This document shows, one piece after another, positions 7,978-48,800 of a DNA stretch of 64,000 nucleotides (position 1 is the stretch's first letter; each line of letters begins with the position of its first letter). The stretch is taken from NCBI GenBank assembly GCA_963797095.1, contig CAWCNY010000002.1, positions 864,001 to 928,000 of the forward strand, given 5' to 3'. This stretch comes from an uncultured Chloroflexia bacterium (GTDB taxonomy: Bacteria > Chloroflexota > Chloroflexia > QHBQ01 > JADMIH01). The position numbers were made by a program, and so were the translations under genes. Under the pieces are notes generated by a model. The model ran no database searches, was not told the DNA's origin, and saw only the letters and a program-made list of their open reading frames with translations.

Positions 7978-8742
7978 ATGGAAGTGAGATTGCTCGGCGC
8001 TCACCAGGGGCAAAGCCGTGAGATCGGGTTTATGTCGATCCTGGTGGATGGGAAGCTGGCGATAGACGCCGGGGGGCTGACCACTGCCCTTACATTGGAG
8101 GAGCAAGAGGGTATCGAGGCTATGCTGGTCACGCACCGGCACTTCGACCACATCAAGGATCTGGTGGGGTTGGCTCATAACAACTGGCAGGTACGAAGCC
8201 TGAACATTTATTGTATAGACGATGTGCGCTCAGCTTTGCGGGCGCATATTTTCAATGATGTGTTGTGGCCCACCATGAGCGTGCAGATGGGACCTCTGTA
8301 TCCACTTACATGGCACAGAGTGGAGATTGGTGTGCCGTTCGAGGTGGTGGGCTATAAGGTGACCGCCATAGAGATGTCGCATACGGTGCCGACGGTGGGG
8401 TATTTTGTAGAACGGGGCGGCAGCAGTTTCTTCTACACGGCGGATACGCGTGGTGATGGCGATCCATCGTGGGCGGGCATAAGGCCCGATCTGCTGATCT
8501 CTGAGACGACGATGGCGAGCGCGAACGAAATGATCGCATATGCCGCCGGGCACATGACGCCGCTATCGCTGGGACGTGAGTTGCGGGCCTTCAAGGAGCA
8601 AGAGGGATATTACCCGAAAACCGTGTGCGTGCACATCAACCCGCACCAGGAGCCGGATGTTGTGCCGGAACTGGGGGCGCTGGCGAAGGAACTAGACGCC
8701 GATATCACGCCGGGGCGCGAAGGTATGGTTTTCAACCTGTGA
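7978..8742 (+). CDS. MBL-fold hydrolase, class II cAMP phosphodiesterase-like
   Basis: LAIDAG, THRHFDHIKDL, HIFNDVLWP, HTVPTVG, YTADT motifs. Confidence 0.8.
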   Translation: MEVRLLGAHQGQSREIGFMSILVDGKLAIDAGGLTTALTLEEQEGIEAMLVTHRHFDHIKDLVGLAHNNWQVRSLNIYCIDDVRSALRAHIFNDVLWPTMSVQMGPLYPLTWHRVEIGVPFEVVGYKVTAIEMSHTVPTVGYFVERGGSSFFYTADTRGDGDPSWAGIRPDLLISETTMASANEMIAYAAGHMTPLSLGRELRAFKEQEGYYPKTVCVHINPHQEPDVVPELGALAKELDADITPGREGMVFNL

Positions 8743-8795
8743 CGATGGACGATAGTTCCAAGTTCCAACTATTGACTACCGACCACCGACCTCGC
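8740..8795. repeat. composite heptamer array (GACGATR)2 (GTTCCAA)2 GACTACC GACCACC
   Basis: Read directly; its reverse complement resembles the 11065-11197 array. Confidence 0.7.
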
Positions 8796-10155: not shown

Positions 10156-10977
10156 TCAGCGAATAGTGCTTGCCATGCTCCTATCGGGTGCGACTTTGCC
10201 GTCGCCTGGGCCGATCTCCACTTCCACCGCATCTTCTCCGTAGATATCGCGGAACTTCTTTTCATCGATTTCGAGGGCGGGGCCATCGAACACGATATGC
10301 CCGCCTTCGCCATCGTTGCGGAGGGCGATCACGCGGTCGGCGTAGCGGCGGGCAAGCGACAGGAAGTGGAGATTGCAGAGGACCGTGATACCATCCTCCT
10401 TGTTGATCTGCTCAAGGTACTTCATCACCGAGTGCGAGGTAGCAGGGTCAAGCGAGGCCACCGGCTCATCGGCGAGCATATAGCGGGGGTTCTGCATGAG
10501 GGCGCGGGCGATGCCTACACGCTGCTGCTGGCCGCCCGATAGCTGGTCGGCGCGGTTCCAGGCTTTCTGCGGAATGCCCACACGCGTGAGGTTATGCATC
10601 GCCATCGTGTAGTCTTCCTGTGAGAAGCGATGAAAGAGCGAAGGGAGGGTCTGTTTGTAGCCAAGCCTGCCCGACAGCACGTTGGTTATAACCGAAGATC
10701 GCCTGACCAGATTGAACTGCTGGAAAATCATCCCTATCTTGAGGCGTATCTTGCGGATCTGCGCGGCATTGGCCCCGGTAACGTTTTCGCCATCGATCAT
10801 GACGCGCCCGGAGGTCGGCTTGATGAGGCCGTTGATACAGCGCAAAAGGGTGGATTTGCCTGAGCCGGACAGACCTATGATCACGAGGAATTGGCCGTCC
10901 GGAATGTCGAGGTTGATATTGTGCAGCGCCCTGGTGCCATCGTCGTAGGTCTTGCTGAGATTTTCGATCTTGATCAT
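10156..10977 (-). CDS. phnC: phosphonate ABC transporter ATP-binding protein
   Basis: Walker [44 protein letters not shown]. Confidence 0.9.
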
Positions 10978-11064
10978 AGCGCCTCCATAGCAAAGCGAAA
11001 CGCTGAAGCGCGCCCCAAAAGGGCGGGCTTATTCGCACCATATGATACCACAAAGATCAAGGTT

Positions 11065-11197
11065 GGTAGTCGGTAGTCGGTAGTCAGAGGATAACTGACG
11101 AGTGACGAGTGACGAGCGACAAGTGACGAGTGACAGGAACTTGGAACCAGGAACTTGGAACTTGGAACTATAGTCCGACTACCGACTACCGACTACC
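11065..11197. repeat. composite heptamer array (GGTAGTC)3..(TGACGAG)~5 (GGAACYW)~5 TAGTCC (GACTACC)3
   Basis: Read directly; the outer blocks are reverse complements of each other. Confidence 0.85.
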
Positions 11198-11896
11198 AGT
11201 GAACTCCTGCCAGGCGAACTCTATGTTTCGCAAGTGGTCTTCTACAAAGGGGTAGTCTTCATAAACATCGCGGGCTACAGACAGAACACGGTCGAGTGGT
11301 AGGCGGGCGGCCAGCGACGTTAGGACGTGGCGGACGAGATTCTGGGTGTACTCGCGGTCGGCGGCTATGCGCGAGCGTATCTCCCGCTTGCCCTGGGCCG
11401 GTGATCCCCGTTGAGGGAGCTCAAGCCTGGTATCGAACGTTTCTATTGTTTCCAGAGCTTGCAGGTAGCTATCCGCGCCTCCATCGAGGAGTGGTATATA
11501 ACCGGCAGAGAGCAGGCCCCCGCAAAGAAGGATGCGCGCCTTTTTGTGGTATACCCCGATCCGGTTGGGCGAGAGAGATGCGGTTTCCCAGCCCGACACA
11601 GGTGGTGGCAGCAGAGGCGCGCTTGCGCTTGAGACTGGCGTAATGACGATGGCATTGGGCCAACGCAGGCGCGCAGGGTGGTCGCCCGGCTCCTCAGTGA
11701 AGAGGAGCGCGCCGATTCCGCGCTCCATATCCCCGGCAAACTTGCCAAGTGCATCAATTTCAATGGTCAGGTCGCCGGGATCAACTACCACCAAAGGTCC
11801 ATCGCCCTCGACATCGAGAAGCACAGCGATATTACGCTCGTTATCGCTGTTGTGTAACGCCCATAGGCCGGGTGCGAGTTCGGTGCTCTGGATCAT
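11186..11896 (-). CDS. degenerate MBL-fold-like hypothetical protein
   Basis: MBL-like spacing (VVVDPG, ILLCGGLL, PQRG) but HxHxDH replaced by TEEPGDH; downstream of pknB. Confidence 0.55.
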   Translation of the reverse strand: MIQSTELAPGLWALHNSDNERNIAVLLDVEGDGPLVVVDPGDLTIEIDALGKFAGDMERGIGALLFTEEPGDHPARLRWPNAIVITPVSSASAPLLPPPVSGWETASLSPNRIGVYHKKARILLCGGLLSAGYIPLLDGGADSYLQALETIETFDTRLELPQRGSPAQGKREIRSRIAADREYTQNLVRHVLTSLAARLPLDRVLSVARDVYEDYPFVEDHLRNIEFAWQEFTGSR

Positions 11897-20069: not shown

Positions 20070-20617
20070 ATGAGTTCTGTAGCCCATCGATTACTCACAG
20101 CCGAAGATTTCCGGCATCTATCCGGAAGCGAGCATAAAGAGCTTATACGCGGGGAGGTGGTTGAAACTGTGCCCCCAGGCAAAGATCATGGCACGATTGC
20201 TCTTGCCATAGGCACTTTGCTACGCCTATGGGCCAGGCAGGGCGTAGGTGGCAAGGTAGGTGTCGAATCAGGCTTTATCCTGGCTCGCGATCCCGATACT
20301 GTGCGTGGGCCGGATGTATACTATGGAAGCCCCAGCCGAGTGACTTCAGATAGTAAAACCAATGCCTTCTGGACTATTGCGCCCGATCTGGCCGTCGAGG
20401 TTGTCTCCCCAGCGAGACAGCAGATGAGATTCGGGAGGAAGTGCGTGACCTCCCGACAGCAGGAACACCTCTCGTGTGGGTAGTTTATCTTCGCACTCAC
20501 GAAGTTGTAGCTCATACTTCGGATTGCCTGGCGAGAACCTACGGTCAGGAGGACCTCCTTGAATTGGCCGATCTGTTGCCAGGGTCTTCATGTAAGGTGG
20601 CTGAATTGTTCGAATAA
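20070..20617 (+). pseudogene. Uma2 family endonuclease, frameshifted
   Basis: ELIRGEV, PDTVRGPDV, APDLAVEVVSP; one base is missing at TCCCCA (~20406-20411) and the continuation SETADEIRE..VWVV..LLPG..VAELFE* lies in another frame, ending at 20617. Confidence 0.8.
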
Positions 20618-20670
20618 TTTATATCGCCCCGCGGTCAAAACCGCGAAAAATCTTCTTGAGGAGCAAACAT

Positions 20671-21872: not shown

Positions 21873-22400
21873 ATGTCGCATACTATCGAGACTTTCAGGT
21901 CGATGCTGGCGCCGTTGCCCGCATACTGGATCTTTCTCGCCGAAAGTGTGCCTGATGATCTCATCCGGCGCCCTGCTGCCGAGGGCGAGTGGTCGGCCTT
22001 ACAATGCCTCAGCCACCTGCTCGATACCGAACGGATGGTGTTCCCGGCACGTGTGCGTGTCTTCCTCTCCGGAGGCGACTCTTTTGCTGCTTTCGATCCG
22101 GACGAGGAAGGCACGGATTACTCGCAAATGTCAGCCCCACAGGTAGCGCAGGAGTTCGCACGCTACAGGCGCGAGAACCTGCAACTCCTTGGGCAGGTAC
22201 AACCCCAGCACCTGTTGCAGGAAGCCCGCCACTCCGAACTGGGTATGGTCACTCTTGAAGAAATGCTCAATGAGTGGGTCGCACACGACCTCAACCACAC
22301 CGTCCAGGCCGAGCGCGCCCTGATGCAAGCCTTCATTCCAGGCTCAGGCCCCTGGAGGCACTATTTTAGGGATCATGATATAGAGATGGACGATAGGTGA
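21873..22400 (+). CDS. DinB family protein
   Basis: GEWSALQCLSHL and WVAHDLNH metal-binding His motifs. Confidence 0.8.
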   Translation: MSHTIETFRSMLAPLPAYWIFLAESVPDDLIRRPAAEGEWSALQCLSHLLDTERMVFPARVRVFLSGGDSFAAFDPDEEGTDYSQMSAPQVAQEFARYRRENLQLLGQVQPQHLLQEARHSELGMVTLEEMLNEWVAHDLNHTVQAERALMQAFIPGSGPWRHYFRDHDIEMDDR

Positions 22401-22512
22401 CGAGTGACGAGTGACGAGTGACGAGTGACGAGTGACCAGGAACAAGGAACAAGGAACTAGGAACTAGGAACTAGAGTCCAACTCCGACTACCAGGAACAA
22501 TCGTCCACTGTC
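22398..22512. repeat. composite heptamer array (TGACGAG)5 TGACCAG (GAACWAG)5 AGTCC..GACTACC
   Basis: Read directly; the first unit contains the DinB stop codon. Confidence 0.85.
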
Positions 22513-22530: not shown

Positions 22531-24150
22531 ATGGTATCGCTTCTAGCACCTCCTATAGTTGAGAACCCCCTGCGCGAGGGACTGCGCATGCGGCGCACCC
22601 CCAACCCCTGCATCTTTGTGCTGTTCGGCATCACCGGCGACCTAGCACATCGCAAGCTCCTTCCCGCCCTCTATAACCTGTCGGTGGAGCGGAGGCTGCC
22701 GCCCAACTTCACCATCGTGGGCTTCGCGCGCCGCGCGTATACCGACGAAGAGATACGCAAAGAACTGAAGGCTTCGGTCCAGAAGTATGCGCGCAATAAG
22801 CCTTCCGAGCGCCCGGGAGTGTGGAACTCGTTCGCAGAAGGCATATTCTATGTTCAATCGAACTTCGATGACCTGGAGGGCTACAAGAAGCTTGAGCGTC
22901 GCCTCTCAGAGATCGACAAACAGCGCGGCACGCTTGGCAACCGCCTCTACTACCTTTCCACGCCGCCCGACTTCTATCCCACAATCGTGCAGCAATTGGG
23001 GGCGGCGGGCCTTTCCAACACTCGCCCGGTCTCCATTGCCGATGGCACAAGCAACGGTGCGGGCGGCCTCTTTATGCCCCTGGAGACCGAGGGATCCTGG
23101 CGGCGCATCGTGGTAGAAAAGCCTTTCGGCCACGACCTGCCAAGCGCCCACCAGCTAAATCGCCAGATCAGCGAGGTCTTCCACGAGGAGCAAATCTACC
23201 GTATCGACCACTACCTGGGCAAAGAGACGGTTCAGAATATCCTGGTGTTCCGCTTCGCCAACGGCATCTGGGAGCCTATCTGGAGCCGGCGCTATATAGA
23301 CAGCGTGCAAATAACAGTGGCCGAGAACCTGGGCGTTGAGGATCGAGCCTCCTACTATGAGACCGCGGGCGCTCTGCGCGATATGCTTCAGAACCACATG
23401 ATGCAGTTGCTAACCCTGGTCGCGATGGAGCCTCCAGCTTCGTTCGATGCCCAGTCGGTGCGCGACGAAAAAGCCAAAGTATTGCGGTCTATCAAGCCAT
23501 TCACCCCCGCAGAAGTAGCTCATAATACGGTGCGCGGGCAGTATGGGCCGGGGTCGATCTTCGGCAAGCCTGTGCCCGGCTACCGCCAGGAGGCCAACAT
23601 CCCGCCCGATTCGGACACCGAAACTTTCGTGGCTGCGCGCTTCTTCGTAGATAATTGGCGTTGGTCGGGCGTGCCGTTCTATCTGCGCCACGGTAAGCGC
23701 CTGCCCAAGCGTGCCACCGAGATCGCGATCCAGTTCAGGCCCGCGCCCCTTGCCCTCTTCCAGCACACCGCCGCCGACGAGTTGCAGCCGAACGTGCTTG
23801 TGCTCCATATCCAGCCGGACGAAGGCATCTCGATCAAGTTCGAGTCGAAGCTGCCAGGCCAGGATATCCGCCTGCGTTCCGTTGATATGAACTTCAATTA
23901 TGGTACCTCATTCGGTATAGAAACACCCGACGCGTATGAACGGCTATTATGGGATGCGATGATCGGCGACTCGACGCTCTTTACCAGGCGCGACGAGGTC
24001 GAACTGATGTGGACGCTTGCCACCTCTATCCTCGAAGGATGGAAGCGCATCCCACCGCCCACTTTCCCCAACTATAGAGCGGGCAGTTGGGGCCCAAGCG
24101 TAGCCGATGATCTGATAGCCCGCGATGGAAGGCAGTGGAGGCGTGTGTAA
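22531..24150 (+). CDS. zwf: glucose-6-phosphate dehydrogenase
   Basis: FGITGDLA, EKPFG, RIDHYLGKE, NWRWSGVPFYLR. Confidence 0.97.
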   Translation: MVSLLAPPIVENPLREGLRMRRTPNPCIFVLFGITGDLAHRKLLPALYNLSVERRLPPNFTIVGFARRAYTDEEIRKELKASVQKYARNKPSERPGVWNSFAEGIFYVQSNFDDLEGYKKLERRLSEIDKQRGTLGNRLYYLSTPPDFYPTIVQQLGAAGLSNTRPVSIADGTSNGAGGLFMPLETEGSWRRIVVEKPFGHDLPSAHQLNRQISEVFHEEQIYRIDHYLGKETVQNILVFRFANGIWEPIWSRRYIDSVQITVAENLGVEDRASYYETAGALRDMLQNHMMQLLTLVAMEPPASFDAQSVRDEKAKVLRSIKPFTPAEVAHNTVRGQYGPGSIFGKPVPGYRQEANIPPDSDTETFVAARFFVDNWRWSGVPFYLRHGKRLPKRATEIAIQFRPAPLALFQHTAADELQPNVLVLHIQPDEGISIKFESKLPGQDIRLRSVDMNFNYGTSFGIETPDAYERLLWDAMIGDSTLFTRRDEVELMWTLATSILEGWKRIPPPTFPNYRAGSWGPSVADDLIARDGRQWRRV

Positions 24151-26094: not shown

Positions 26095-26852
26095 TGCCAA
26101 CTACAACCGTCCAAATCATAGACTCCCCTGCTGACATAGCGCGTGCCGCAGCCGAGCGATTTGTGCTGCTCGCCAATTCTTCCACCGCCGGCGGCAACGA
26201 ATTCAGCGTGGCCCTTTCGGGTGGCTCCACTCCCAAATTGCTCTACGATCTCCTTACCTCCACCGAGTTCCGCGACGATGTACCCTGGCAACACCTGCGC
26301 TTCTTCTTCGGCGACGAACGTTGGGTGCCTCACACCGACCCCCAGAGCAACTTCAAGCTCGCAAACGACTATCTCTTTAAGCCCCTCAACATCTCGCACA
26401 CAAACGTATACCCGGTGCCAACCAGTGGCGACCCCGACAGTGCAGCCTCTCATTACGAGACTACCCTCCGCTCGGCCTTAGACCTCAACAAAGGCGAAGT
26501 GCCGCGCTTCGACCTGATATTCCTCGGCATGGGCGATGAGGGGCACACCGCCTCTCTTTTCCCTCACACCAACGTGCTCCATGAGAACGATAGGCTGGTG
26601 TCTGCCACCTTCGTGCCCAAACTGGATGCAAACCGGATCACTCTCACCCCTCTTACCCTCAATGCAGCCCACCAGACTATCCTCATGGTAGGCGGCGCGG
26701 GTAAAGCCGAAGCTCTCCACCAGGTGTTAGAGGGCGAGTACAACCCCGATGAATACCCAGCCCAACTCCTGCGGAACTCGCTGGGGCAGGTGACCTGGCT
26801 GGTAGACAAAGCCGCCGCTTCCTCATTAGAAGGCGACTACCCGGGAGTATAA
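26094..26852 (+). CDS. pgl: 6-phosphogluconolactonase
   Basis: ALSGGSTP, GDERWVP, LGMGDEGHTASLFP. Confidence 0.95.
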   Translation: MPTTTVQIIDSPADIARAAAERFVLLANSSTAGGNEFSVALSGGSTPKLLYDLLTSTEFRDDVPWQHLRFFFGDERWVPHTDPQSNFKLANDYLFKPLNISHTNVYPVPTSGDPDSAASHYETTLRSALDLNKGEVPRFDLIFLGMGDEGHTASLFPHTNVLHENDRLVSATFVPKLDANRITLTPLTLNAAHQTILMVGGAGKAEALHQVLEGEYNPDEYPAQLLRNSLGQVTWLVDKAAASSLEGDYPGV

Positions 26853-27535
26853 TGCATTACACCACACGCCCAATACACATAGTTCCCTCCATTCTCTCCG
26901 CCGACTTTGCTCGCCTGGGCGACCAGGTGCGCGAGGCCGAGGCTGCCGGTGCCGGGCGCATCCAGGTGGACGTAATGGACGGCCACTTCGTGCCCAACAT
27001 CACCGTTGGCCCTCTCATCATCGAGGCGATCCGCCCACATTGCACTATCCCAATCGAAGCGCACCTGATGATCGAGCACCCTGAGCTATATATCCCACAG
27101 TTCGCGAAGGCCGGGGCCGATTACATTCTCGTTCACGTCGAAACCTCGCCCCACCTGCACCGCACCATCCAGCAGATACGCGACGAAGGCAAAGGCGCGG
27201 GCGTTGTTCTGAACCCGGCCACCCCCCTTGTTGCCCTCGAAGAAATCCTCATCTACGTCGATATGGTGCTTGTAATGACGGTCAACCCCGGCTTCGGCGG
27301 GCAGGAGTTCATCGAGTCGATGTTGCCCAAGATACGCCGCTTGCGCGCCATGCTCGACGAGCATAACCCCGATTGCGATATAGAGGTAGACGGGGGCATT
27401 CACGAAACCACCATCGCCGATGCCGTCCATGCTGGGGCCAATCTCCTTGTCGCAGGCTCCGCCGTCTACAGCGCCCTCGAAGGCGTGGCTGCCGCCATGT
27501 CTCGCTTGCGCGCGGCCATCGACCAACCTCTCTGA
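26852..27535 (+). CDS. rpe: ribulose-phosphate 3-epimerase
   Basis: PSILSADF, DVMDGHFVPN, MTVNPGFGGQ, EVDGG. Confidence 0.96.
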   Translation: MHYTTRPIHIVPSILSADFARLGDQVREAEAAGAGRIQVDVMDGHFVPNITVGPLIIEAIRPHCTIPIEAHLMIEHPELYIPQFAKAGADYILVHVETSPHLHRTIQQIRDEGKGAGVVLNPATPLVALEEILIYVDMVLVMTVNPGFGGQEFIESMLPKIRRLRAMLDEHNPDCDIEVDGGIHETTIADAVHAGANLLVAGSAVYSALEGVAAAMSRLRAAIDQPL

Positions 27536-29476: not shown

Positions 29477-29872
29477 ATGAGCAGCAAGTGTCGAGACTCT
29501 TACGAGAAACTGCGCGACTTCGCGCTTGGGCTGCCCGAAGCGTTTGAAGATCACCCCTGGGGCGAGAACGTGGTCAAAGTCAATAAGAAGGTCTTCGTCT
29601 TCTTCGGTCTTCCTGAGAGCCTGGACGAACGGCTCCTTTTGGTCGTAAAGCTGCCGCGCACGGGCGAATACGCCCTCGATATGCCCTTCGTCAAGCCGAG
29701 CGGCTATGGCCTCGGCAAGCACGGGTGGGTCAACATCCAGCTGGGCCCCGACGATGATCTGCCAATGGATCTCCTGTTGGAATGGGTGGAGGAAAGCTAT
29801 CGCGCGGTAGCTCCCAAACGTCTTGTTGCGCGACTCGAAGAAACAAGGAGTGAGGATGATCTCTATTCGTAA
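29477..29872 (+). CDS. MmcQ/YjbR family DNA-binding protein
   Basis: LPEAFEDHPWG, KVNKKVF, GKHGWV, ESYRAVAPK. Confidence 0.85.
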   Translation: MSSKCRDSYEKLRDFALGLPEAFEDHPWGENVVKVNKKVFVFFGLPESLDERLLLVVKLPRTGEYALDMPFVKPSGYGLGKHGWVNIQLGPDDDLPMDLLLEWVEESYRAVAPKRLVARLEETRSEDDLYS

Positions 29873-29974
29873 AGCGTTTCCTCTCTGTATGCTCCCCCTT
29901 CAACCCCCTGGACTCCTGATCCCAATCCCATCGTAGGGTGAAGCATAGCTAGCCCTCTTTAGCCCCAGGCATCA

Positions 29975-30031
29975 TTCCGCACTCCGCACTCCGCACTCCG
30001 CACTCCCCATTTCGCACTCCCCATTTCGCAC
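29975..30031. repeat. heptamer array CTCCGCA / CTCCCCA / TTTCGCA
   Basis: About eight degenerate 7-bp units, same family as 11901-11952 on the opposite strand. Confidence 0.8.
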
Positions 30032-30049
30032 GTTGGAGCATGTTCATAA

Positions 30050-31186
30050 TTGGAGCAACAACCAATGCCCGCGCCCCAATTCATCCCAGGTCTGGAACTC
30101 AGCAAACGCTTCTACCAAGAAGCGGTTTTCCCCATACTCAATGAGCACTTCCCCAACCTTCCCTACGCTGCTGCCCGCGTAGGCCACGGCAGCGAGGTGC
30201 TCGGCTTCGACACCCCAATGTCCACCGATCACAACTGGGGACCCTCCTTGCAGATCTTCCTGCGCGATCAAGATGCCGCGCTCGCTCCCCAGATCACCGA
30301 GGTGCTGAGCCACAATCTCCCCTACGTCTTCTACGGCTATGCAACCCACTTCATCAACTCAACTCTCGAACCGGGCAAAGGCACCGTACACCAGGAAATC
30401 AAGTCCGAAGGCCCGATCAACCACATGGTCTACACAGGCACTCTCCGCGCTTTCATCCAGGACGACCTAGCCTACGACCTCGACGATCCCCTTACGCCCG
30501 CCGACTGGCTCACCTTCCCCTCGCAAAAGCTACGCACCCTCACTGCCGGTGCGGTCTATCGCGACGATACCGGCGACCTGACGGCCCTTCGCCAGCGCCT
30601 CGCCTGGTATCCTCATGACGTTTGGCTCTACCTGCTGGCCGCCGGTTGGAAGCGCATCTCCCAGGAAGAACACCTCATGCCGCGTGCAGGCTATGTCGGC
30701 GACGAACTGGGTTCAGCCCTCATAGGCTCCCGCCTTGTGCGCGATCTCATGACCCTCTGCTTCCTCATGGAGCGCCGCTACGCCCCCTACCCCAAGTGGT
30801 TCGGCACCGCCTTCAAGCAGCTAAAGTGCGCCCCCGCCCTCACCCCCGCCCTCTGGTGTTCCCAGATCGCTCCCACCTGGCAGGAGCGCGAAACTGGCCT
30901 GAGCGAAGCCTACGAATACATCACCCGCGCCCACAACGCGCTGGGGATCACGCCACCTCTCCCCACCACCGTGTCGCACTTCTTCGGACGCCCCTTCAAC
31001 GTGATCTACGGCGAAAAATGCGTCGACATCATCCTGTCGCAACTCACCGACCCCGCCGTCAAGCTAATAGCCTCCTCAACCCTCATCGGCAGCCTCGACC
31101 AGTTCAGCGACAGCACAGATCTGCGCGAAGATACCCACCGCCGCAAGCGCCTGCTATCTCTCTATAGAGACGACCTACCCCAATAA
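30050..31186 (+). CDS. DUF4037 domain protein (nucleotidyltransferase-like)
   Basis: GHGSEVLGFD..STDHNWGP, WYPHDVW, YAPYPKW motifs. Confidence 0.8.
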   Translation: MEQQPMPAPQFIPGLELSKRFYQEAVFPILNEHFPNLPYAAARVGHGSEVLGFDTPMSTDHNWGPSLQIFLRDQDAALAPQITEVLSHNLPYVFYGYATHFINSTLEPGKGTVHQEIKSEGPINHMVYTGTLRAFIQDDLAYDLDDPLTPADWLTFPSQKLRTLTAGAVYRDDTGDLTALRQRLAWYPHDVWLYLLAAGWKRISQEEHLMPRAGYVGDELGSALIGSRLVRDLMTLCFLMERRYAPYPKWFGTAFKQLKCAPALTPALWCSQIAPTWQERETGLSEAYEYITRAHNALGITPPLPTTVSHFFGRPFNVIYGEKCVDIILSQLTDPAVKLIASSTLIGSLDQFSDSTDLREDTHRRKRLLSLYRDDLPQ

Positions 31187-38424: not shown

Positions 38425-38479
38425 CCGACAAGCAACCGGTACGCATTGAGTACTGAGTGCTGCCTATTCCATAGCGCTC

Positions 38480-38516
38480 CGGCTACCGGCTACCGGCTAC
38501 CGGCGACTATAGTCCA
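38480..38516. repeat. heptamer array (GGCTACC)3 followed by ACTATAGTCC
   Basis: Read directly; ACTATAGTCC also occurs at 11167-11176. Confidence 0.7.
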
Positions 38517-40071: not shown

Positions 40072-43000
40072 CTACTGTTTGTTATCGCTGGGAGTGTAGC
40101 AGTTGGGATAGAAGGTGTTCGCTACTATCTTCGATGCTTGTCCTCTCGTCGCGTTGGAGCCTGGCCTGAAGTATGGCAGGTTGTCTGGGCCTACACACGG
40201 CTCTCCCGGGCTGCCGCATGGGTATCCGTTCATGATGCCAAGGTCTGTCAGCCTCCAGATGTAGTCGTAGAACGTCGAGCCTGGCAGTACGTCCTCGAAC
40301 TGCTGTGCTCCAGGTGTCGTGTTGTACCCTGCTGCCTCTGACACTATCTTCGACAGTTGTCCTCTCGTGATGTTGGCGTTCGGTCTGAAGTACGGCAGGT
40401 TATCCGGCCCTACACACGGCTCTCCTGGGGAGCCACATGGGTACCCTGTCACGATGTTGCGGATTGCCAGCCTGTTGATGAACGCGTAGAACGTTGAGCC
40501 TGCCGGTACATCCTGGAACATCTGCAGTCCTGGGTCGTCGTTGAAGCCAGCCGAGTTGGACACTATCTTGGATAGCTGACCTCTTGTGACCAGGTTACCA
40601 GGGCGGAAGCATGGATTGCCAGTCTCACACCCTGTCGAATAGCCGTTGATGATGCCTCTGCATGCCAGGCACCTGATGTAGGTGTAGAAGGTGTTGTCTG
40701 GCAGCACATCTGTGAACTGCATTGGACACGAGGTTGGTGTGGCTGTTGGTACCCCTGGTGTGTCGGTGGAGGTGGGTGGCACTAGTGCTGTGTCAGTCGG
40801 TGGCACTACTGCCGTATCGGTTGGAGGCACCACTGGTGTACCCGTGTCAGTTGGAGGCACCACTGGTGTATCTGTTTCGGTTGGCAATACGGGTGTGTTG
40901 GTAGCTAAGCTTGTTGAGGTGCTCGTTGCAAGCGTACCGGTTGGAGTGCTAGTGGGTGTGCCGGGCGTGTCAGTGCTCGTTGGTATGGTGGTGTTCGTAC
41001 TGGTAGGTACCGTTCCCGTGGGGCTGTTAGTAGGTGTGCCGGTAATAGTAGGCGTATTTGTCGGGGCATTGGTGGGCGTATTGGTGGGTACGCTCGTAGG
41101 TGTGTTCGTGTCTGTAGGTGTAACGGTGACCGTGCCGGTGCTGCAAGCTCCCGTGATTATGATGTCATCAATGCGCCACCCTGTGGCTGATACACTGCTG
41201 TCTGTGCCTTCCCTGAACCTTACCAGCAGGTTCTGCCCTGCATATGGGCTGAGGTCCACCACACTCTGTACATACCCACTGCTCGAGGCTACCCATGCCT
41301 GCCTGCTTGCCAGCGGGTTATTGCAGCATGTGGATACCGTGCCTCCATACCCTCCTGAGATGATGTTAGCTCCCATATCAGCCCAGGTGCTCCCACCATT
41401 GGTAGAAGCCTCAAGCACTCCTCCATCGTAGTAATTGGAGCCGTTGAACTCGAAGGCGTAGTCATGCCAAAAGGTGAGTTGTGAGCCTGCCACGGGCACC
41501 ACAGCAGAGACTAGGGTAAGTTGTTGGTCCGATATATTACTTACATCGGGGGCGAATGCTGAGAAGCTGCCTGAATGTGGACTGGCAGCCTGGGCAGCCC
41601 ACCCACACCCACCAGGCACACAGGTGGGAACCACCGAGGTGAATGCCCCAAGCGTCCCCGACTCAAATCCTTCGGCCAGTACCACCCCACAAACTGTAGG
41701 GCTGGGTGAAGGTGTGCGCGTGCTCGTGCTTGTGAGTGTACTGGTGTTTGTGGGCGTGGAAGTAGGAGGAGTGCCCGTTGGCGTGGGGGTTGCCGTACCT
41801 CCGCCTTGCAGGCTCATGCTTCCCATATAGAGATCGAATTGATGCAGAGTGCCGTTGGCGTTGGTGCCATCGCAGTTGGCGTTATCCGCCCACATCCCGA
41901 CGAACCTGCCTGCATAAGCGTCATTAGCCACGTAGTCGCCATAGTCAATGCCGTTGCCGGCATCATCAGCATTCGAGAAGCCGCCGCTCAGGCGCTGGTT
42001 GGGTGCCCAGGTGGCCCCACCATCGGTGGTATAAGTCGCATAATACTCGGAGTCGTCGTTGGGCGTATTGTTCGTGCCTCCTGAGCCGGGCACGCCGTCG
42101 TCGTTGCGCGCATCGTGGAAGCTCACTGCTACAGTTCCGCTTGTCCGGTCGAGCGCGATGTACGGCAGGAACTGGCTGCGAATTGGACCTGATGGATCAT
42201 CGTTCACACGCACAGGCGCAGACCATGTCGTGCCGTCATTGTCCGACGTGCGCACATATATATCCATGTCGTTGCTTTCGTTGACAATCTCTTCCGTATA
42301 AACCATGTATACGCGTCCATTGTACGGCCCGCCGGTCGAATCCCACACAAGCCCGGACTCAGCATCGACCGAGCGGCCCGACTGTGCCGGGATATAGTCG
42401 AATCCGCCCACGTTAGTGGTCGTTACCGTGATCTGCGACCCGAAGTTCGATGGGCCAAGACCGTCCGGGTCCACATTGGCATAGATAGTGGCTGGGCCTT
42501 GCCCTCCTGTTGGGTTCTGGTACACGATCATGACCTTGCCGCCGGGGCCTACCGCGATGCCTCCAAAGCTACCGGAGGCGCTTGGCGGTGTTTGTGTGGC
42601 GGCGAACGGTCCGTAAACGCCAAGTCCTGTGACCGGCGCACCACGCGCCCTCATGCTTCCGCTCTGGTTCCAGTCTACCCACACGCTTCCAGCGCCAACG
42701 GCAATTGAAGGCTGGTCGATGCTGCCTGAACCTACTGTAAGGGGCGCGGTGAAAGTCACTCCGCCATCGGTGCTTGAGATCACATTGATCTGGTTGACCG
42801 AGCCGTTGATATACACCAGGAAGAGATTGCCGTATGTATCGAACACTGCCTGCCCATCGCAGCAAGCCACGCCTGTCGCGACCGAGCCGCGTGTCCACGT
42901 AGTGCCGCCATCGAATGAATACGCCCGGAATATGTTGTTGACCGATGCCTCATTGGAAAACGCTACCAGGTTTTGCGTATTGGTCGGGTTGATGAGTATA

Positions 43001-43284
43001 GCGCTCTCGGATTGGTTACCGCTTTCTACGCTGACATTGACCACAGGTTCCACGCACGCTTGCGGTTGGTAGCTCGTATCGGGCGGTGTTGTTCCCGGTC
43101 TATCTGCCGGGGGTGGAACCTTGAGCGTACCATCCTGTACATCGACCTTGGTTCCCCCCTGGATAATTGCCCCGGAGAGCGCTGCTTCTTGCGGCCCAGC
43201 GGTCGCCGGTGCGCTGCTCACCACCAGGAATGCCAATAGAACCAGGATTGCAACAGTGATTGTTGACCAGTATATGCGCCGCAT
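40072..43284 (-). CDS. large SLH-anchored surface protein: BNR/Asp-box (sialidase-like) propeller, beta-sandwich module, Thr/Pro linker, three SLH repeats
   Basis: Asp boxes SFDGGTTW, STDGGVTF, SDNDGTTW, TTDGGATW; F.DV..TF SLH repeats; AAGGAAGG RBS before ATG 43284. Confidence 0.85.
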   Translation of the reverse strand: MRRIYWSTITVAILVLLAFLVVSSAPATAGPQEAALSGAIIQGGTKVDVQDGTLKVPPPADRPGTTPPDTSYQPQACVEPVVNVSVESGNQSESAILINPTNTQNLVAFSNEASVNNIFRAYSFDGGTTWTRGSVATGVACCDGQAVFDTYGNLFLVYINGSVNQINVISSTDGGVTFTAPLTVGSGSIDQPSIAVGAGSVWVDWNQSGSMRARGAPVTGLGVYGPFAATQTPPSASGSFGGIAVGPGGKVMIVYQNPTGGQGPATIYANVDPDGLGPSNFGSQITVTTTNVGGFDYIPAQSGRSVDAESGLVWDSTGGPYNGRVYMVYTEEIVNESNDMDIYVRTSDNDGTTWSAPVRVNDDPSGPIRSQFLPYIALDRTSGTVAVSFHDARNDDGVPGSGGTNNTPNDDSEYYATYTTDGGATWAPNQRLSGGFSNADDAGNGIDYGDYVANDAYAGRFVGMWADNANCDGTNANGTLHQFDLYMGSMSLQGGGTATPTPTGTPPTSTPTNTSTLTSTSTRTPSPSPTVCGVVLAEGFESGTLGAFTSVVPTCVPGGCGWAAQAASPHSGSFSAFAPDVSNISDQQLTLVSAVVPVAGSQLTFWHDYAFEFNGSNYYDGGVLEASTNGGSTWADMGANIISGGYGGTVSTCCNNPLASRQAWVASSSGYVQSVVDLSPYAGQNLLVRFREGTDSSVSATGWRIDDIIITGACSTGTVTVTPTDTNTPTSVPTNTPTNAPTNTPTITGTPTNSPTGTVPTSTNTTIPTSTDTPGTPTSTPTGTLATSTSTSLATNTPVLPTETDTPVVPPTDTGTPVVPPTDTAVVPPTDTALVPPTSTDTPGVPTATPTSCPMQFTDVLPDNTFYTYIRCLACRGIINGYSTGCETGNPCFRPGNLVTRGQLSKIVSNSAGFNDDPGLQMFQDVPAGSTFYAFINRLAIRNIVTGYPCGSPGEPCVGPDNLPYFRPNANITRGQLSKIVSEAAGYNTTPGAQQFEDVLPGSTFYDYIWRLTDLGIMNGYPCGSPGEPCVGPDNLPYFRPGSNATRGQASKIVANTFYPNCYTPSDNKQ
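41132..41674. repeat. 543-bp direct repeat, identical to 47413-47955
   Basis: No mismatch seen by eye; constant offset of 6281. Confidence 0.9.
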
Positions 43285-43524
43285 ATAGAACCTTCCTTCC
43301 TTGCTGAGAATAACTACCTGCAAATAACCGGATAATCATAGCGAATCGTGCGCACAAAGATGAAGCAGGGACATATAGATGGGTAACATTGGAGCAGTAG
43401 GATCGTTGTCCCCTTGAGTTCGGATGAGAACGCACTGTGTTGAGGGGCCTCAAGAATATTCTAGCGACTAGATTGTAGATTGTAGCACCTATTCTTCTCG
43501 CTTGTCAATCACCGATCCGCTTGG

Positions 43525-44151: not shown

Positions 44152-45697
44152 GGGTGGCTCAGATAGGGGGCGAGTTGTAGACCAGGTGCCAGCACTGATC
44201 GAAGCGTGAACTGAGGATTGCCGTCCGCACTGGCAACAGCTTTTCGGCACCCAGGCGGCTCCAACGCATACCTGCTCCGGCGAAGCGAGCCTTGAACTGC
44301 TTGCCTGCGCTCTCCACCGTGCCTGAGCCAATAGGGTAACCTGCTTCGCGCATCTGGGAGTAGTTCATACGATGTGCGTTATTGCTGAAGTAACCAGCCT
44401 CAATGTTTAGCTGTTCAGCTTGTTTTGGTTGCCGCTCTGCCAAGTCAGCTAGCACCTGTGCCAAGTAGCCTGCTCCACCCTCAAATAGCAGCTTTTTCTG
44501 TGCCTCTAGCCATTGTTTGGAGGCGCTCGCGTCGCCTTCGTGTGATGCTAAAGATGCTTGGGCCAGGTGCTGCGCTCCATGATACCAGTCTACCAGTTGA
44601 GCACTGTCATACAAGTGCTCGGTGGCCAGGTTCCAAATCCACCCAGCACCATCTGCTACTACCAGCGTGTGATCAGCCCTCTCCCACCCTCTGTGGTGTG
44701 CCTCTCCCCATAGCATCTGTCCGAACACGGTGGGTCCGCCTAGATGGGCTACATAGCTTTGGTTAGTAGCACGGGCACGACTATCTTCGCTTCCTTCCTC
44801 CTCAAACTCAGTGGCCAATGCAGGCTCCGTTTTATCAGCCTCCATCTCCATAGCTTCAATGTCGAAGACGCACCCCACCTTCAACTCTTTCCAACCTTCC
44901 CCACGAATGTGGATCATAGCGCCATCCATACTCGCACCCATCTTTGTGAATTGCCCAAGGCACCCCAGGCACCCCAGGCACCCCAGGCACCCCGGGCGCA
45001 AATGCGTTGGAACCTTCTGCCTTAGAACCTTCCCTCTCGACCTGTATATGTACATCGTTGGCGGAGTTGGCTGCTCTCCACCGTGCAGCCTCCACCTCTC
45101 CAAAGCTACTACCCCACTCCTGGCACAGCCTCCAAACAGTGCTGTCGGAGATGGACACACCTCCTATCTGCTCAAGTACTTGTGCCCCTCTCTCGAAGTC
45201 CACCAATCCTCCCAGCCATACTGACTGCTTGAATATCCATTCGCTCCAATGCACGTCCCACAAGTGCAACTGCTCATCCAGGGGGGAAAAGCCCCTTACG
45301 GCAGTAGGAGCAATAGTAGTAGGAGCGTTGTACTTTGATGGTGCCTATCCTGCTTTCCACAGGGTGAGCCTTCTCTCCCTTGTAGCGCATCTCCCGGTTG
45401 CACTCAGGACAAGGTGGGCCAGGTACATTCTGAGTGGAGACCTCTTGCTGTGCCAGCACCGCTTGTGCCATCTGCTCACTCAGTTGAGTGCGCAGCTTCA
45501 CTACCGCCTCCTCGATCTGAGCTAGTGTGGGTTGGGGGGTGTCGGCTGACCAGCCAATCAGTTGTTCAATTGCTTGCTCTGCCTGTGCCATCAGGTCCGC
45601 CTTCATCTGTTCTCGGGTACGTTTCATCAGGAGCCTCCATGCTACGCGCAAGATCCTCCTATTATCTCAAACCTTGCCCCCTATCTGAAATGCACCC
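44152..45697 (-). mobile_element. ISKra4-family insertion sequence, transposase split over three frames
   Basis: Imperfect TIRs GGGTGGCTCAGATAGGGGGCGAG / GGGTGCATTTCAGATAGGGGGCAAG; CPEC..YYCSYC zinc ribbon, SMDG, WKELK, ADGA, DWYH, GSGTVES. Confidence 0.85.
44958..44993. repeat. 9-bp tandem repeat (AGGCACCCC)4 inside the ISKra4 transposase
   Basis: Read directly; encodes (GVP)4 on the coding strand. Confidence 0.9.
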
Positions 45698-45815: not shown

Positions 45816-48800
45816 TTACGGTGAATAGGTCACGGCCAGATAGACGATCTTGCTGATCTGGGCGCGAGTTGCGTTGTCTCCCGGCAGGAAGTAAGGCTTA
45901 TTCCCCGGCGCTACACATGGGCCTGCGGGTGGTGTCCCGCATGGATACCCTTCCACCACGCCATGTGCAACAGCCGTCTCTATGAACTGGTAGAAGGTAC
46001 TTCCCTTAGCCACGTCCTGGAATGTGTTAGTTGCTGGATCAAGCAGAGTCCAGTTCGTGGGGTCTGCGATTATGGCCGCATTTACCACGATCTTCGATAG
46101 CTGGCCCCTCGTGATGTACGCGTCCGGCCTGTAGGTGTTGTCCGGGTAGCCTGAGAAGATACCAAGATTGAAGCCGGTCTCTACATAAGGGTAGAAAGTG
46201 CTTCCCACCCTCACATCGCTGAAGTGTGGCCCGCCGCTGGTGTTGATCGGGAAGTCGAACGCCAACACCACGATCTTCGCCATCTGCCCGCGAGTGGTGT
46301 TGTTGCCCGGCTTGAAGCAATTGACGCCAGGTGCGCTGCACGGAGGCGAGGTGCTATATCCATTCACCACCCCATGACAGTACAGGTAATGCACGTAATC
46401 GTAATACCAGTTGCCAGGAACCACATCCTCGAAGCTCATCGGACAGAGGGTGGCCGTAGCGGTGGGCATGTTGGTGGGCGTGCCTGTCCTGGTCGGCGTG
46501 TTAGTTGTCGTGTTTCCGGGCGGGTTGGTAGCGGTTCTTGAAGGTGTATTCGTAGCAGTGTTGGGAGGAGCGCCGGTTGGGGTCCTGGTTGTAGTACTGG
46601 ATGGCGTGTTGGTAGCAGTATTGATAGGCGTCAGAGTTGCAGTATTGGACGGTGTGCTGGTAGTTGTGTTCGACGGAGTGCCGGTCGTAGTAGTATTGGA
46701 TGGGGTATTGGTAGCGGTATTGACAGGCGTGCCGGTCGCGGTGCTCGTAACTGTGTTTGTGTTAGTTGAGGTCCTGGTTGGCGTACTGGTTGGTGGTGGG
46801 GTGCCCGTTGGAGTGTTGGTGGGAATGTTGGTTGGGGTGTTGGTCGGTGCATTTGTACTACTAGGGGTATTGGTGGGTAAGTTGGTTGGGGTCCTGGTTG
46901 GAGTACTAGTTGGCGGTGTAGTGCCTGTCGGAGTACTAGTTGGCGGTGTAGTGCCTGTCGGAGTACTGGTGGGTATGTCGGTTGAAGTGTTGGTTGGCAC
47001 AAGCGTACTGCTTGGGGTATTGGTTGTCGTATTTGTCCGCGTAGGAGTGTTGGTGGGCGGTAACGTGGCGGTAGGAGTATTCGTCGGAACAGGGGTGAAT
47101 GTGGCTGTAGGCGTACTGGTCGGCACATTCGTAGATGTTGCCGTAGGCGTATTTGTGTGGGTTGAAGTGGCCGTAGGCGTATTGCTCGCTGTACCGGTTG
47201 CGGATGGTGTATTGGACGCGGTACTGGTCGCCGTTGACGTGTTACTCGGCGTACTCGTTACAGTGGAAGTACTGGTCGAAGTGTTCGTTCGTGTGGGGGT
47301 GCTGCTGGTCGTGTTGGTCGCCGTTGACGTGTTAGTGGCCGTATTTGTTCCGGTTGGCGTATTAGTCGGTACGCTGGTTGGTGTACGAGTTGACGTACTG
47401 GTGGAGGTAGCTGTGCCGGTGCTGCAAGCTCCCGTGATTATGATGTCATCAATGCGCCACCCTGTGGCTGATACACTGCTGTCTGTGCCTTCCCTGAACC
47501 TTACCAGCAGGTTCTGCCCTGCATATGGGCTGAGGTCCACCACACTCTGTACATACCCACTGCTCGAGGCTACCCATGCCTGCCTGCTTGCCAGCGGGTT
47601 ATTGCAGCATGTGGATACCGTGCCTCCATACCCTCCTGAGATGATGTTAGCTCCCATATCAGCCCAGGTGCTCCCACCATTGGTAGAAGCCTCAAGCACT
47701 CCTCCATCGTAGTAATTGGAGCCGTTGAACTCGAAGGCGTAGTCATGCCAAAAGGTGAGTTGTGAGCCTGCCACGGGCACCACAGCAGAGACTAGGGTAA
47801 GTTGTTGGTCCGATATATTACTTACATCGGGGGCGAATGCTGAGAAGCTGCCTGAATGTGGACTGGCAGCCTGGGCAGCCCACCCACACCCACCAGGCAC
47901 ACAGGTGGGAACCACCGAGGTGAATGCCCCAAGCGTCCCCGACTCAAATCCTTCGCTGAACACCACACAAGCGGTAGGAGTAGGTGAAGGTGTGGCGGTA
48001 GAGGTAGGAGGCGTGCCCGTTGCTGTAGGAGTTGGCGTAGCTCCCGTGCAGCCCGGGAATTTGAAGTTCCCTATGCGTGTGCGCCAGTTGAATTGGCCTG
48101 TGGAGGCGTAATACTCGTTGGTGTACCAGAATGTGCAGTCGTCCACCGGATCTACGGTCAGGTCGCTATAGTCACCCCAACGATTGCCGGTGCCTGTTTG
48201 CGAACCTGTGCCCGCAAAGAGAGTGACTTCGCCTTGAGACAGGTTATTGATTGGGTCGGTGGAGAGACGCCCCGCGTAGCGCAACTGAGGGAATATGGAA
48301 GACGACGACGCGCTGAAGCCGACAGCCAGGTTGCCCTGCTGGTCCATCGCCGCACTGCCCAGCCATCTCCAGGTGGTATCCGGCTGGTAAGTGCTCTGCT
48401 GAACGAAACTGGGCGTGCCCGATGTGGCGTTGGTTACCTCCCACCAGCGCACGCCTGCTACCCCGCCTGAGCTAACGCTCTTGTTGCCGACCAGGGCTTC
48501 ATGTCCATCGGTGAAGCGCCTGTACGCCAGGCGGAACATCGGCCTGTCGCCTATCCCGTCCAATCCGCTGGCGGTGCCCGACTGCGGCACGCAGTTGCGG
48601 GTGGCCGAACACAGGGTAGTGTAGCCCGCCGGTGAGAGGTTGGTCGCCAGGGTAAATGTGCTGTTGGCCGGAGTTGCGAAGTCCACATGGTACCGGTAAA
48701 CGGGCCATGTGGACCCCGAAGCACCCATGAAAGGCGCGGGAGCGCCGGCAGGCGGTAGTATCGAGCCGTCGATGTCAGCCGGTAGCATGAAACCTATTGC

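Follow-up and report, generated by a model that had tools for sequence, protein, structure and literature searches.

The 64,000-nucleotide stretch analyzed here (the window; positions 864,001 to 928,000 of contig CAWCNY010000002.1, assembly GCA_963797095.1, denoted G000:C2:864001-928000 below) belongs to an uncultured Chloroflexia bacterium with a genome of 6.02 Mb and 58% G+C, and carries at positions 11065-11197 a composite array of tandem 7-nt units. The heptamer arrays of this genome are short tandemly repeated repetitive (STRR)-like heptanucleotide repeats, a known kind of sequence. We read the array at 11065-11197, with moderate confidence, as one locus of a genome-wide system of such repeats that arises by slippage together with homology-driven copying between arrays and has no dedicated enzyme. 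The block order that the first-pass annotation had pointed out in this array resolves into two components, the copying of composite modules and a strand polarity that is free of gene orientation. Slippage plus homology-driven copying is the most economical mechanism; neither the multi-unit grammar nor a polarity independent of orientation seems to have been described before.

Bacterial heptanucleotide repeats, known since about 1990, are the most over-represented class of long microsatellites. In the present genome, period 7 accounted for 1326 of 4665 rows obtained with Tandem Repeats Finder (TRF), followed by periods 9 (768), 12 (529), and 6 (375). On contig C2, 378 period-7 rows were found versus 26 in a fifth-order Markov simulation of the same contig, and exact runs of at least three copies numbered 409 at period 7 versus 51, 7, and 68 at periods 6, 8, and 9, respectively. 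The enrichment of period 7, proposed earlier as a check, is strong against both neighboring periods and simulated sequence. The arrays comprised 267 canonical heptamer units, nine of which formed at least 44 arrays each, and the commonest were TGACGAG (175 TRF arrays) and GACTACC (144). Relative to a crude open reading frame (ORF) map with 4430 genes covering 84% of the genome, 607 of the 1016 array loci were intergenic, 86 lay across a gene boundary, and 323 were located inside called ORFs, which contained 31% of the array bases. About 690 loci were distributed over 3907 spacers (roughly one spacer in six) with no strong bias for co-directional, convergent, or divergent contexts. The median distance of arrays to gene ends was 6 bp at stop-ends and 30 bp at start-ends, and the orientation of the units with respect to transcription was weak (61:40 for TGACGAG, 52:49 for GACTACC). 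The assignment as STRR-like follows from the tandem 7-nt units, the period-7 excess, the mainly intergenic location, the presence of several units that differ between species, and the rapid change at orthologous positions. The HIP1 element was not enriched (72 copies in G000).

TRF analysis and the sequence itself gave the following layout for the flagged locus: a G-rich left arm (GGTAGTC)3.0 at 11065-11085, the junction AGAGGATAAC at 11086-11095, (TGACGAG)5.6 at 11096-11134 (87% matches), a block of the GGAACNN family, (GGAACTT/GGAACCA)4.9, at 11136-11169, the switch-point junction ATAGT at 11170-11174 (within GGAACTATAGTCCGAC), and a C-rich right arm (CCGACTA)3.3, equivalent to (GACTACC)n, at 11175-11197. 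AGGA/AGA-type junctions such as the one behind the left arm recur after GGTAGTC arms, and ATAGT is a TATAAT/TATAGT-like word that recurs at transitions from GGAAC to GACTACC. The two outer blocks are mutually reverse-complementary, giving an array with inverted ends, a point absent from the first-pass annotation. A second array at 22397-22500, referred to as the sister locus, shows the same inner order with (GTGACGA)5.7 at 22397-22436, a single C, (AGGAACA/AGGAACT)5.3 at 22438-22474 followed by ..AGAGTCCAACTCCGACTACC, and the junction AGAGTCCAACTCC with one GACTACC unit at 22475-22500. In both loci the blocks consist of head-to-tail 7-nt copies (3-5.7 per block, 85-100% matches in TRF) that include the unit variants GGAACTT, GGAACCA, and GGAACTA. 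Sequence and TRF thus bear out the order (TGACGAG)n > (GGAAC..)n > ACTA.AGTCC > GACTACC that had been reported for the two loci.

Block adjacency across the genome was evaluated by the recurrence of oriented pair types, using the 310 adjacencies of 236 loci in which two or more distinct blocks adjoin. The observed value of 411 compares with 188 ± 17 when order and orientation were shuffled within loci, 99 ± 15 when blocks were shuffled across loci, and 207 ± 12 when orientation alone was randomized; none of 2000 shuffles reached 411 under any of the three nulls, and the suspected non-randomness of adjacent blocks is confirmed. Most frequent among the oriented pairs were GGAACCA > GACTACC (16), TGACGAG > AATACGC and TGACGAG > ACGCAGT (11 each), GGTAGTC > TGACGAG (9), and GGAACTT > GACTACC (8). 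The claim of a fixed block order holds as far as the order is non-random; it fails in its strict form, since inner GGAAC blocks occur in both orientations beside GACTACC (24 versus 7, the inverted form being CCTGGTT > GACTACC) and the modules are mosaic.

The junctions between blocks recurred as well. The word GGTAGTCGG-AG-GACGAG was present in six of nine loci, the words between GGAAC and CCGACTACC were TATAAT, TATAAAT, TATAGT (twice), TAAAT, and TAAT, and a ...CGTC(C/T)T word also precedes CCGACTACC. A 20-mer spanning the GGTAGTCGG-AG-GACGAG junction occurred in four copies in G000, each with different outer neighbor blocks, and in none of 25 congeners, including the closest relative G017, which possesses both units. 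Recurrent words and 20-mer copies with differing neighbors indicate that composite modules were copied between loci, recently and in this lineage, with a mosaic result. A promoter function of the TATAAT-like junction was considered and dismissed, as the gene end next to 36 such modules was a start 22 times and a stop 14 times, which is not significant.

The alternative that every array arose purely by independent slippage, with the common order a coincidence among a few abundant units, is in our view very unlikely. A 7-nt slippage preference is a published hypothesis (Mrazek 2007, in the passages citing it in PMC4679880 and PMC4692102), and the unit variants within blocks look like mutation followed by local expansion. 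Against this stand an adjacency above all 2000 shuffles, the abundance-keeping null included, identical junction words at unlinked loci, and a polarity (see below) that does not come from spacer background composition. The earlier argument that independent slippage is insufficient is supported by the non-random adjacency and orientation and by the junction words common to separate loci.

In the mechanism that we favor, some 1000 loci would occupy the gaps that separate genes, tRNA genes included, in this Chloroflexia genus, copy number would shift by slippage, and units would be replaced quickly. Blocks would be copied from array to array; where two arrays have a unit in common, homology-driven recombination or template switching is the likeliest route. 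The flagged and sister loci would owe their common order to a copied module consisting of TGACGAG, GGAAC, ACTA.AGTCC, and GACTACC, and additionally to a rule obeyed by composite loci that places G-rich blocks 5' of C-rich ones on either strand. The commonest composite form would be a convergent pair of one unit, able to form a long DNA or RNA hairpin. In three public DNA runs of one study, which yielded only scattered short contigs, a low-support contig (depth 2.6, side 22) joined 11086 to 11143 and thereby skipped 56 bases (8 × 7); it may derive from another locus.

The G-rich-then-C-rich rule was evident from GGTAGTC- and GACTACC-type runs located within 300 bp, which formed 25 pairs in the order GGTAGTC...GACTACC and none in the reverse order, both of which would be self-complementary. 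Inverted arm pairs of all units within 250 bp had one polarity: 27:0 for GGTAGTC..GACTACC, 10:0 for TGACGAG, 4:0 for one further unit, 2:0 for three, and 12 singletons. By hand count, G exceeded C in the 5' arm in 14 of 18 unit types (55 of 59 loci), equaled it in three, and was lower in one. From one TRF block to the adjacent one, G minus C switched sign from plus to minus in 95 cases versus 17 from minus to plus (p = 2.5e-14), with 78:16 for pairs of different units and 52:9 when counted by distinct unit-pair types. As this statistic is invariant under reverse complementation and unit rotation, the polarity is no artefact of orientation. A reverse-complement unit was found 3' of a G-rich-oriented array in 77 loci versus 5' in 19 in G000, and in 19 versus 0 in the congener G003. 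In 400 kb of G003, 193 of 420 TRF rows had period 7 and the ratio of G-to-C to C-to-G transitions was 17:0, with units such as ACGCATC, ACGATAG, AAAGGAT, and AAAATCC and neither dominant G000 unit present in three or more tandem copies; 200 kb of G041 gave 88 of 232 rows and a ratio of 10:1. Purine skew as an alternative measure yielded 131:32 in G000, 22:2 in G003, and only 6:4 in G041.

The one-way pairs could suggest decayed copies of a single transposase-mobilized hairpin, i.e. a MITE (miniature inverted-repeat transposable element) family with (GGTAGTC)n terminal inverted repeats; the 25 inward-facing loci with none opposite and the conservation of some internal junctions would fit. However, repeats resembling target-site duplications were at chance level in the 25 hairpin loci (lengths of 0, 2, 3, and 4 in 12, 10, 1, and 2 loci versus 11.7, 9.1, 2.8, and 1.2 for re-paired flanks), and the flanks, with at most 0.3 bit per position, were not conserved. 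The arms varied from 14 to 58 bp and were unequal in copy number within a pair, the interiors varied from 14 to 89 bp and differed in content, 17 other units had the same one-way polarity, and the orthologous spacer in G017 contained an array of other units at the same boundary instead of an empty site. A MITE origin, raised earlier as what might undo the repeat-spreading idea, is therefore highly improbable.

The polarity was maintained in all gene contexts, with 30:8 and 31:6 for spacers between two plus- or two minus-strand genes, 12:3 for convergent and 4:0 for divergent spacers, and 18:0 inside called ORFs. When the outermost block was scored, the G-rich strand ran 5' to 3' away from the gene in 243:96 cases at start-ends (72%) and 271:114 at stop-ends (70%). 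At tRNA gene ends the ratio was 15:1 (7:0 at 5' ends and 8:1 at 3' ends, p = 5e-4), many of these arrays belonging to one cluster. This cluster (G000:C2:1272685-1283378, outside the window) comprises no fewer than 20 tRNA genes, each on the minus strand, with spacers full of heptamer arrays of many units. Since the polarity is alike at starts, stops, and untranslated tRNA ends, translation does not explain it. Selection on stop codons was rejected as a cause because unit pairs free of stops on both strands were still polar (17:2), as were tRNA ends. Start and stop words failed likewise, with units symmetric for such words still polar (14:46 and 42:23), Shine-Dalgarno-like words showed no preference (33:40 and 27:26), and background skew was discarded because array-free spacers were within ±0.04, with the opposite sign next to starts. 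The symmetry about the spacer and the persistence at tRNA ends make a DNA-level process that takes no account of gene orientation a likelier cause than selection on translation. In a separate comparison, array orientation correlated moderately with local GC skew, the G-rich and the G-skewed strand coinciding in 237:167 and 387:246 arrays (odds ratio 2.2, p = 5e-10).

One DNA-level process that would be directional is repair at a spacer break or gap, where synthesis would elongate the 3'-ended strand of each side with G-rich heptamers, using other arrays as template or a dedicated polymerase or reverse transcriptase (RT); the ends would then be joined head-to-head, like a telomere-telomere fusion, to (G-rich)n-(C-rich)m. 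This detailed scheme is improbable in our estimate. It would fit a polarity that is symmetric about the spacer, free of gene orientation, and kept at untranslated tRNA ends, that extends to dozens of unrelated units from three species and to non-complementary pairs (the different-unit pairs above), and it would also fit the unequal arm copy numbers and the beginning of arrays at the gene boundary. The lack of period-7 enrichment in the class-level relative G040 would mark a trait gained or lost by lineage. On the other hand, no candidate enzyme was found, at least ten units are abundant in each genome, which speaks against a single template, and no asymmetry in growth direction was seen. The broader proposition of directional, DNA-level writing of this lineage's arrays, with other arrays or an unrecognised polymerase as the source, is likewise regarded as unlikely. 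If true, it would cover the polarity at all ends, the unequal arms, the mosaic modules, and the long-unexplained origin of heptamer repeats.

The search for enzymes followed the families named in the first-pass annotation, RT, HUH nucleases, and four-helix-bundle proteins; RT and HUH enzymes showed no association with the arrays, and a dedicated repeat-writing enzyme is unsupported. RVT_1 gave 22 matches in G000, four in G033, none in G040, and none in the heptamer-rich G003 and G041, whose assemblies are 71% and 83% complete, and on this basis an RT link was rejected. The RVT_1 matches of G000 include clusters at C2:823155-826348, C3:569041-572231, and C1:29142-32386, some of them near-identical copies with frames of 555-696 aa. 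Y1_Tnp gave four matches in G000, one each in G003 and G041, and none in G033 and G040. Two of these genes (G000:C4:495048-495389 and G003:C8:381825-382166) encode 150-aa Y1 transposases similar to RAYT (repetitive extragenic palindromic [REP]-associated tyrosine transposase) and are flanked by inverted GC-rich REP-type hairpins, with no heptamer array in the flanks of either, so that a HUH/RAYT link was also rejected. The other three copies in G000 are IS200/IS605 tnpA-like, two of them encoding identical 129-aa proteins with identical DNA immediately downstream. Only two four-helix-bundle genes (PF05635) exist in the genome, a number too small to establish a general link. One is enclosed by inverted arms, (GCCGGTA)4.7 and (ACCGGCT)4.4, and the other has (ATCCAAA)4 as its neighbor on a single side.

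The turnover of the arrays was followed in relatives. The ATP-binding cassette (ABC) transporter gene adjoining the flagged array is conserved across the genus, and G017 shows 86% identity (77-86% gene identity across the orthologous sites compared). Its orthologous spacer contains (GTTGTCA)2.9 (GGTTGTC)4 (GGTGGTT)10.7, starting within about 3 nt of the position at which (GGTAGTC)3 starts in G000, and no heptamer array was found in this spacer in ten more distant congeners with 76-80% identity (two of these loci, L008 and L012, belong to unpublished genomes, G022 and G021, respectively). In the spacer of the sister locus, upstream of the glucose-6-phosphate dehydrogenase gene (zwf), the array directly follows the upstream stop (ATAG) in both species, and G017 has its own G-to-C hairpin there, (TTGTCRG)4, a loop, and (GACAACT)2, with units unrelated to those of G000. 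In three other spacers of the same 11 kb of synteny an array is present in one species only, among them the 208-bp spacer 29862-30090 of G000, which corresponds to 2 bp in G017. The empty orthologous sites asked for earlier are thus not found in G017 at the flagged and zwf spacers, which have arrays with other units, and the three other spacers did provide arrays confined to one species. At two further positions of the same comparison, G017 (C135, L175) has 629-bp and 899-bp insertions, which apparently contain extra small genes, opposite 20611-20668 and 26809-26862, where the spacers of G000 measure 37 and 33 bp.

Beyond this pair of species, (TGACGAG)3 was present in 10 of 41 relatives (a tally that takes in the unpublished G022) and (GGTAGTC)3 in 4 of 41, a reversed control pattern giving 25 matches in G015, and congeners carry other unit repertoires. 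In family f2 (G033, 235 kb), period 7 was enriched (54 of 193 rows) and composite loci were rare; 140 kb of G040 showed no period-7 enrichment (8 of 71 rows, all of about two copies).

Maintenance of arrays at one boundary could also mean that they are selected as modular spacers acting at the RNA level or through protein binding, a possibility that the first-pass annotation had mentioned as a protein-binding element and that we judge unlikely. The arrays would then be hairpins that RNase III cuts for RNA processing or stability, insulators of cistrons or tRNAs, or binding arrays for OB (oligonucleotide/oligosaccharide-binding)-fold or cold-shock proteins with about 7 nt per protein, and the polarity would reflect what is tolerated after the 3' end (G-rich) and before the 5' end (C-rich) of a functional RNA. 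Consistent with this are the common boundary in G000 and G017 despite unrelated units, the close abutment of arrays to stops, the filling of tRNA-cluster spacers, and the geometry of the polarity, which amounts to a G-rich sense strand after 3' ends and a C-rich one before 5' ends. Related cases are described in passages on the rRNA intervening sequence of Coxiella with tandem heptamers at an RNase III site (PMC4990558) and on CspB, which binds heptamer repeats with one protein per unit (PMC4679880).

The flagged locus indeed folds very strongly as RNA, with -68.4 kcal/mol for the plus strand (z -8.3) and -56.3 kcal/mol for the minus strand (z -7.8), a 23-bp outer stem to which the left arm contributes, and none of 200 shuffles equally stable. 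In the plus-strand fold the TGACGAG block pairs with the GGAACTT block (11096-11169) via G-U pairs (CGAGU with ACUUG), and due to this pairing the plus strand folds 12 kcal/mol better than the minus strand. The sister locus, which has the same block order, formed no stable RNA fold (z -0.2 and +1.4); the common block order is therefore not there for the sake of a hairpin, and the hairpin was rejected as its cause. A selected element is further disfavored by the weak orientation of units relative to transcription, by the many spacers in which one of two close species has an array and the other does not, and by the ten distant congeners with none at the flagged spacer. The effect is equally strong at starts and stops, which is unexpected if differing selective logics apply, start, stop, and Shine-Dalgarno words offer no explanation, and the covariance models of Rfam 15 gave no match at E ≤ 1 in positions 10900-11400 of the window. 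A T-run of an intrinsic terminator was found on neither side of the array, the right arm being followed by AGTGAACTCCTGCC and the left arm being preceded by AACCTTGATC (other strand).

Several observations weigh against slippage plus homology-driven copying as the full account. We infer recombinational copying as the spreading process from recurrent junctions, and such copying by itself makes no G-to-C polarity. That two species retain arrays at corresponding spacer boundaries although all units were replaced could mean a selected function. There are 17 polarity exceptions in G000, mostly of the weakly skewed GGAACNN family, and two congeners gave the opposite ratio with too few transitions (G004, 120 kb, 37 of 83 rows with period 7, G-to-C to C-to-G 1:2; G012, 80 kb, 30 of 85 rows, 0:1). 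Outside the genus, in 77 loci from 1.17 Mb of other phyla fetched with (TAACTGA)3, the polarity was not significant (8:3 for transitions, 8:5 for the partner side) and other skew measures were inconsistent. Finally, the decay of periodicity was equal on both sides of the arrays (0.39/0.34/0.29 versus 0.41/0.36/0.33) and indicated no direction of growth.

Among known systems, the STRR repeats are the nearest. They are heptanucleotide repeats of heterocystous cyanobacteria, with an origin in Calothrix. To our knowledge, none of the 50 commonest canonical units found here matches an STRR unit, so that the arrays do not belong to the strict cyanobacterial types STRR1-3. They resemble STRR repeats in the tandem 7-nt units, several types per genome, intergenic location, lineage specificity, and fast change. 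Three tandem heptanucleotides from Calothrix PCC 7601 are cited in a passage of PMC4692102; our repeats differ in the host phylum, Chloroflexota, and in the units, and the passages on STRR repeats describe no block grammar or polarity. Heptanucleotides are given as the most abundant class of long simple sequence repeats (5-11 nt) in many genomes, with 7-nt polymerase slippage as the proposed source (Mrazek 2007, which passages of PMC4679880 and PMC4692102 cite), and period 7 is likewise the commonest class here. Those passages take arrays singly, however, whereas the composite loci of this genome have copied junctions and a polarity that slippage alone does not predict.

The closest precedent for the polarity is provided by the GGGAATC repeats of Xanthomonas, for which the relevant passages report 70 (Xcc) and 75 (Xac) pairs "with convergent orientation" (Rehm 2015, PMC4692102). 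These intergenic G-rich heptamers have the same G-rich-then-C-rich polarity, and they vary in length and sequence between close species at kept position and type; convergent-pair polarity is thus already in print for one unit. According to the same passages, the Xanthomonas repeat is a single unit with G-tracts, read as a G-quadruplex former. Here, in contrast, dozens of units are involved and lack G-tracts (the main units GGTAGTC, TGACGAG, and GGAACTT contain at most two consecutive G), non-complementary pairs are polar too, and the rule was set against gene and tRNA ends. The TAACTGA repeats of Beggiatoaceae, cyanobacteria, and Bacteroidetes are intergenic heptamer arrays described in parts of that work as often mixed with other heptamers, including near-identical assemblages at two loci in Elizabethkingia (MacGregor 2015, PMC4679880). 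They differ, as far as these parts tell, in having one focal unit in fixed orientation directly upstream of start codons, and the polarity was not significant in loci fetched with TAACTGA. Within the same phylum, Chloroflexus aurantiacus has abundant (GATAGRA)n heptamer arrays, which the passage concerned counts as satellites and gives no architecture for (PMC6749651).

REP elements and their pairs (REPINs) mobilized by RAYTs, as well as MITEs, are similarly many-copy, intergenic, and hairpin-capable with inverted ends in one relative orientation; unlike these, the present arrays have neither target-site duplications nor conserved flanks, their arms are variable-length microsatellites, and the RAYT-like genes are flanked by another repeat. 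A literature search, with subscription journals and supplements outside its scope, returned no multi-unit block grammar, copied junctions, or polarity set against gene or tRNA ends. The only published idea on the origin of heptamer repeats met there, in passages of PMC4679880 and PMC4692102, is the 7-nt preference of polymerase slippage.

The genus provides clean constraints on mechanism, namely many units per genome, junction copying between loci, and a polarity blind to gene orientation that includes tRNA genes, and the strict G-rich-then-C-rich order may help explain how heptamer repeats arise. Together with the convergent pairs of Xanthomonas, the polarity forms a quantitative signature. 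Any genome can be scored for it and the score compared with gene content, so that the question of heptamer origin becomes directly testable. In practical terms, the arrays break short-read assemblies, many being found at contig ends in congeners, and they can extend protein ends with repeats, which annotators should expect.

The flagged array lies 88 bp upstream of the start of the ABC-transporter ATPase gene (10156-10977, minus strand), beside a conserved CATATSATACCAYAAA word. On its other side, the right arm supplies the TAG stop of a minus-strand ORF of 236 aa (11186-11896) that has no Pfam family. The sister array begins right after the stop (ATAG) of a gene of the DinB superfamily (21873-22400) and its last unit ends 31 bp upstream of the zwf start (22531-24150). 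With 16 period-7 TRF rows in about 12 loci, and with all the units listed in the first-pass annotation present, the window contains the dozen or so intergenic arrays that had been described, and the additional pieces of the pattern were all recovered in the sequence. They are a (CCAGGAA)3 array of the GGAACNN family at 1371-1391, a miniature module at 2499-2545 (three TGACGAG-like units, GAGCTAT, and CGACTACCGGCTAC), a partial module with inverted middle block at 8740-8790 (GTGACGATGGACGAT, (AGTTCCA)2.1, CTATTGACT, and (ACCGACC)2.0), and (CCGGCTA)3.7 followed by GACTATAGTCC at 38479-38515, the junction word of which is identical to that at 11166-11177. A (TCCGCAC) array occupies 29976-30031 in the 208-bp spacer mentioned above.

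The window also contains tandem repeats of other periods. The top-scoring short repeat is (AGTGCCGCC)15.6 at 52544-52683, a perfect 9-bp tandem repeat with 100% identity, and a second 9-bp array, (CCCCAGGCA)4.9, is found at 44954-44997 with 94% identity. A 219-bp tandem duplication and many repeats of 12, 24, 30, and 51 bp occur at 40124-41088 and 46586-46967, of which at least the first group lies inside a large minus-strand ORF (40072-43323).

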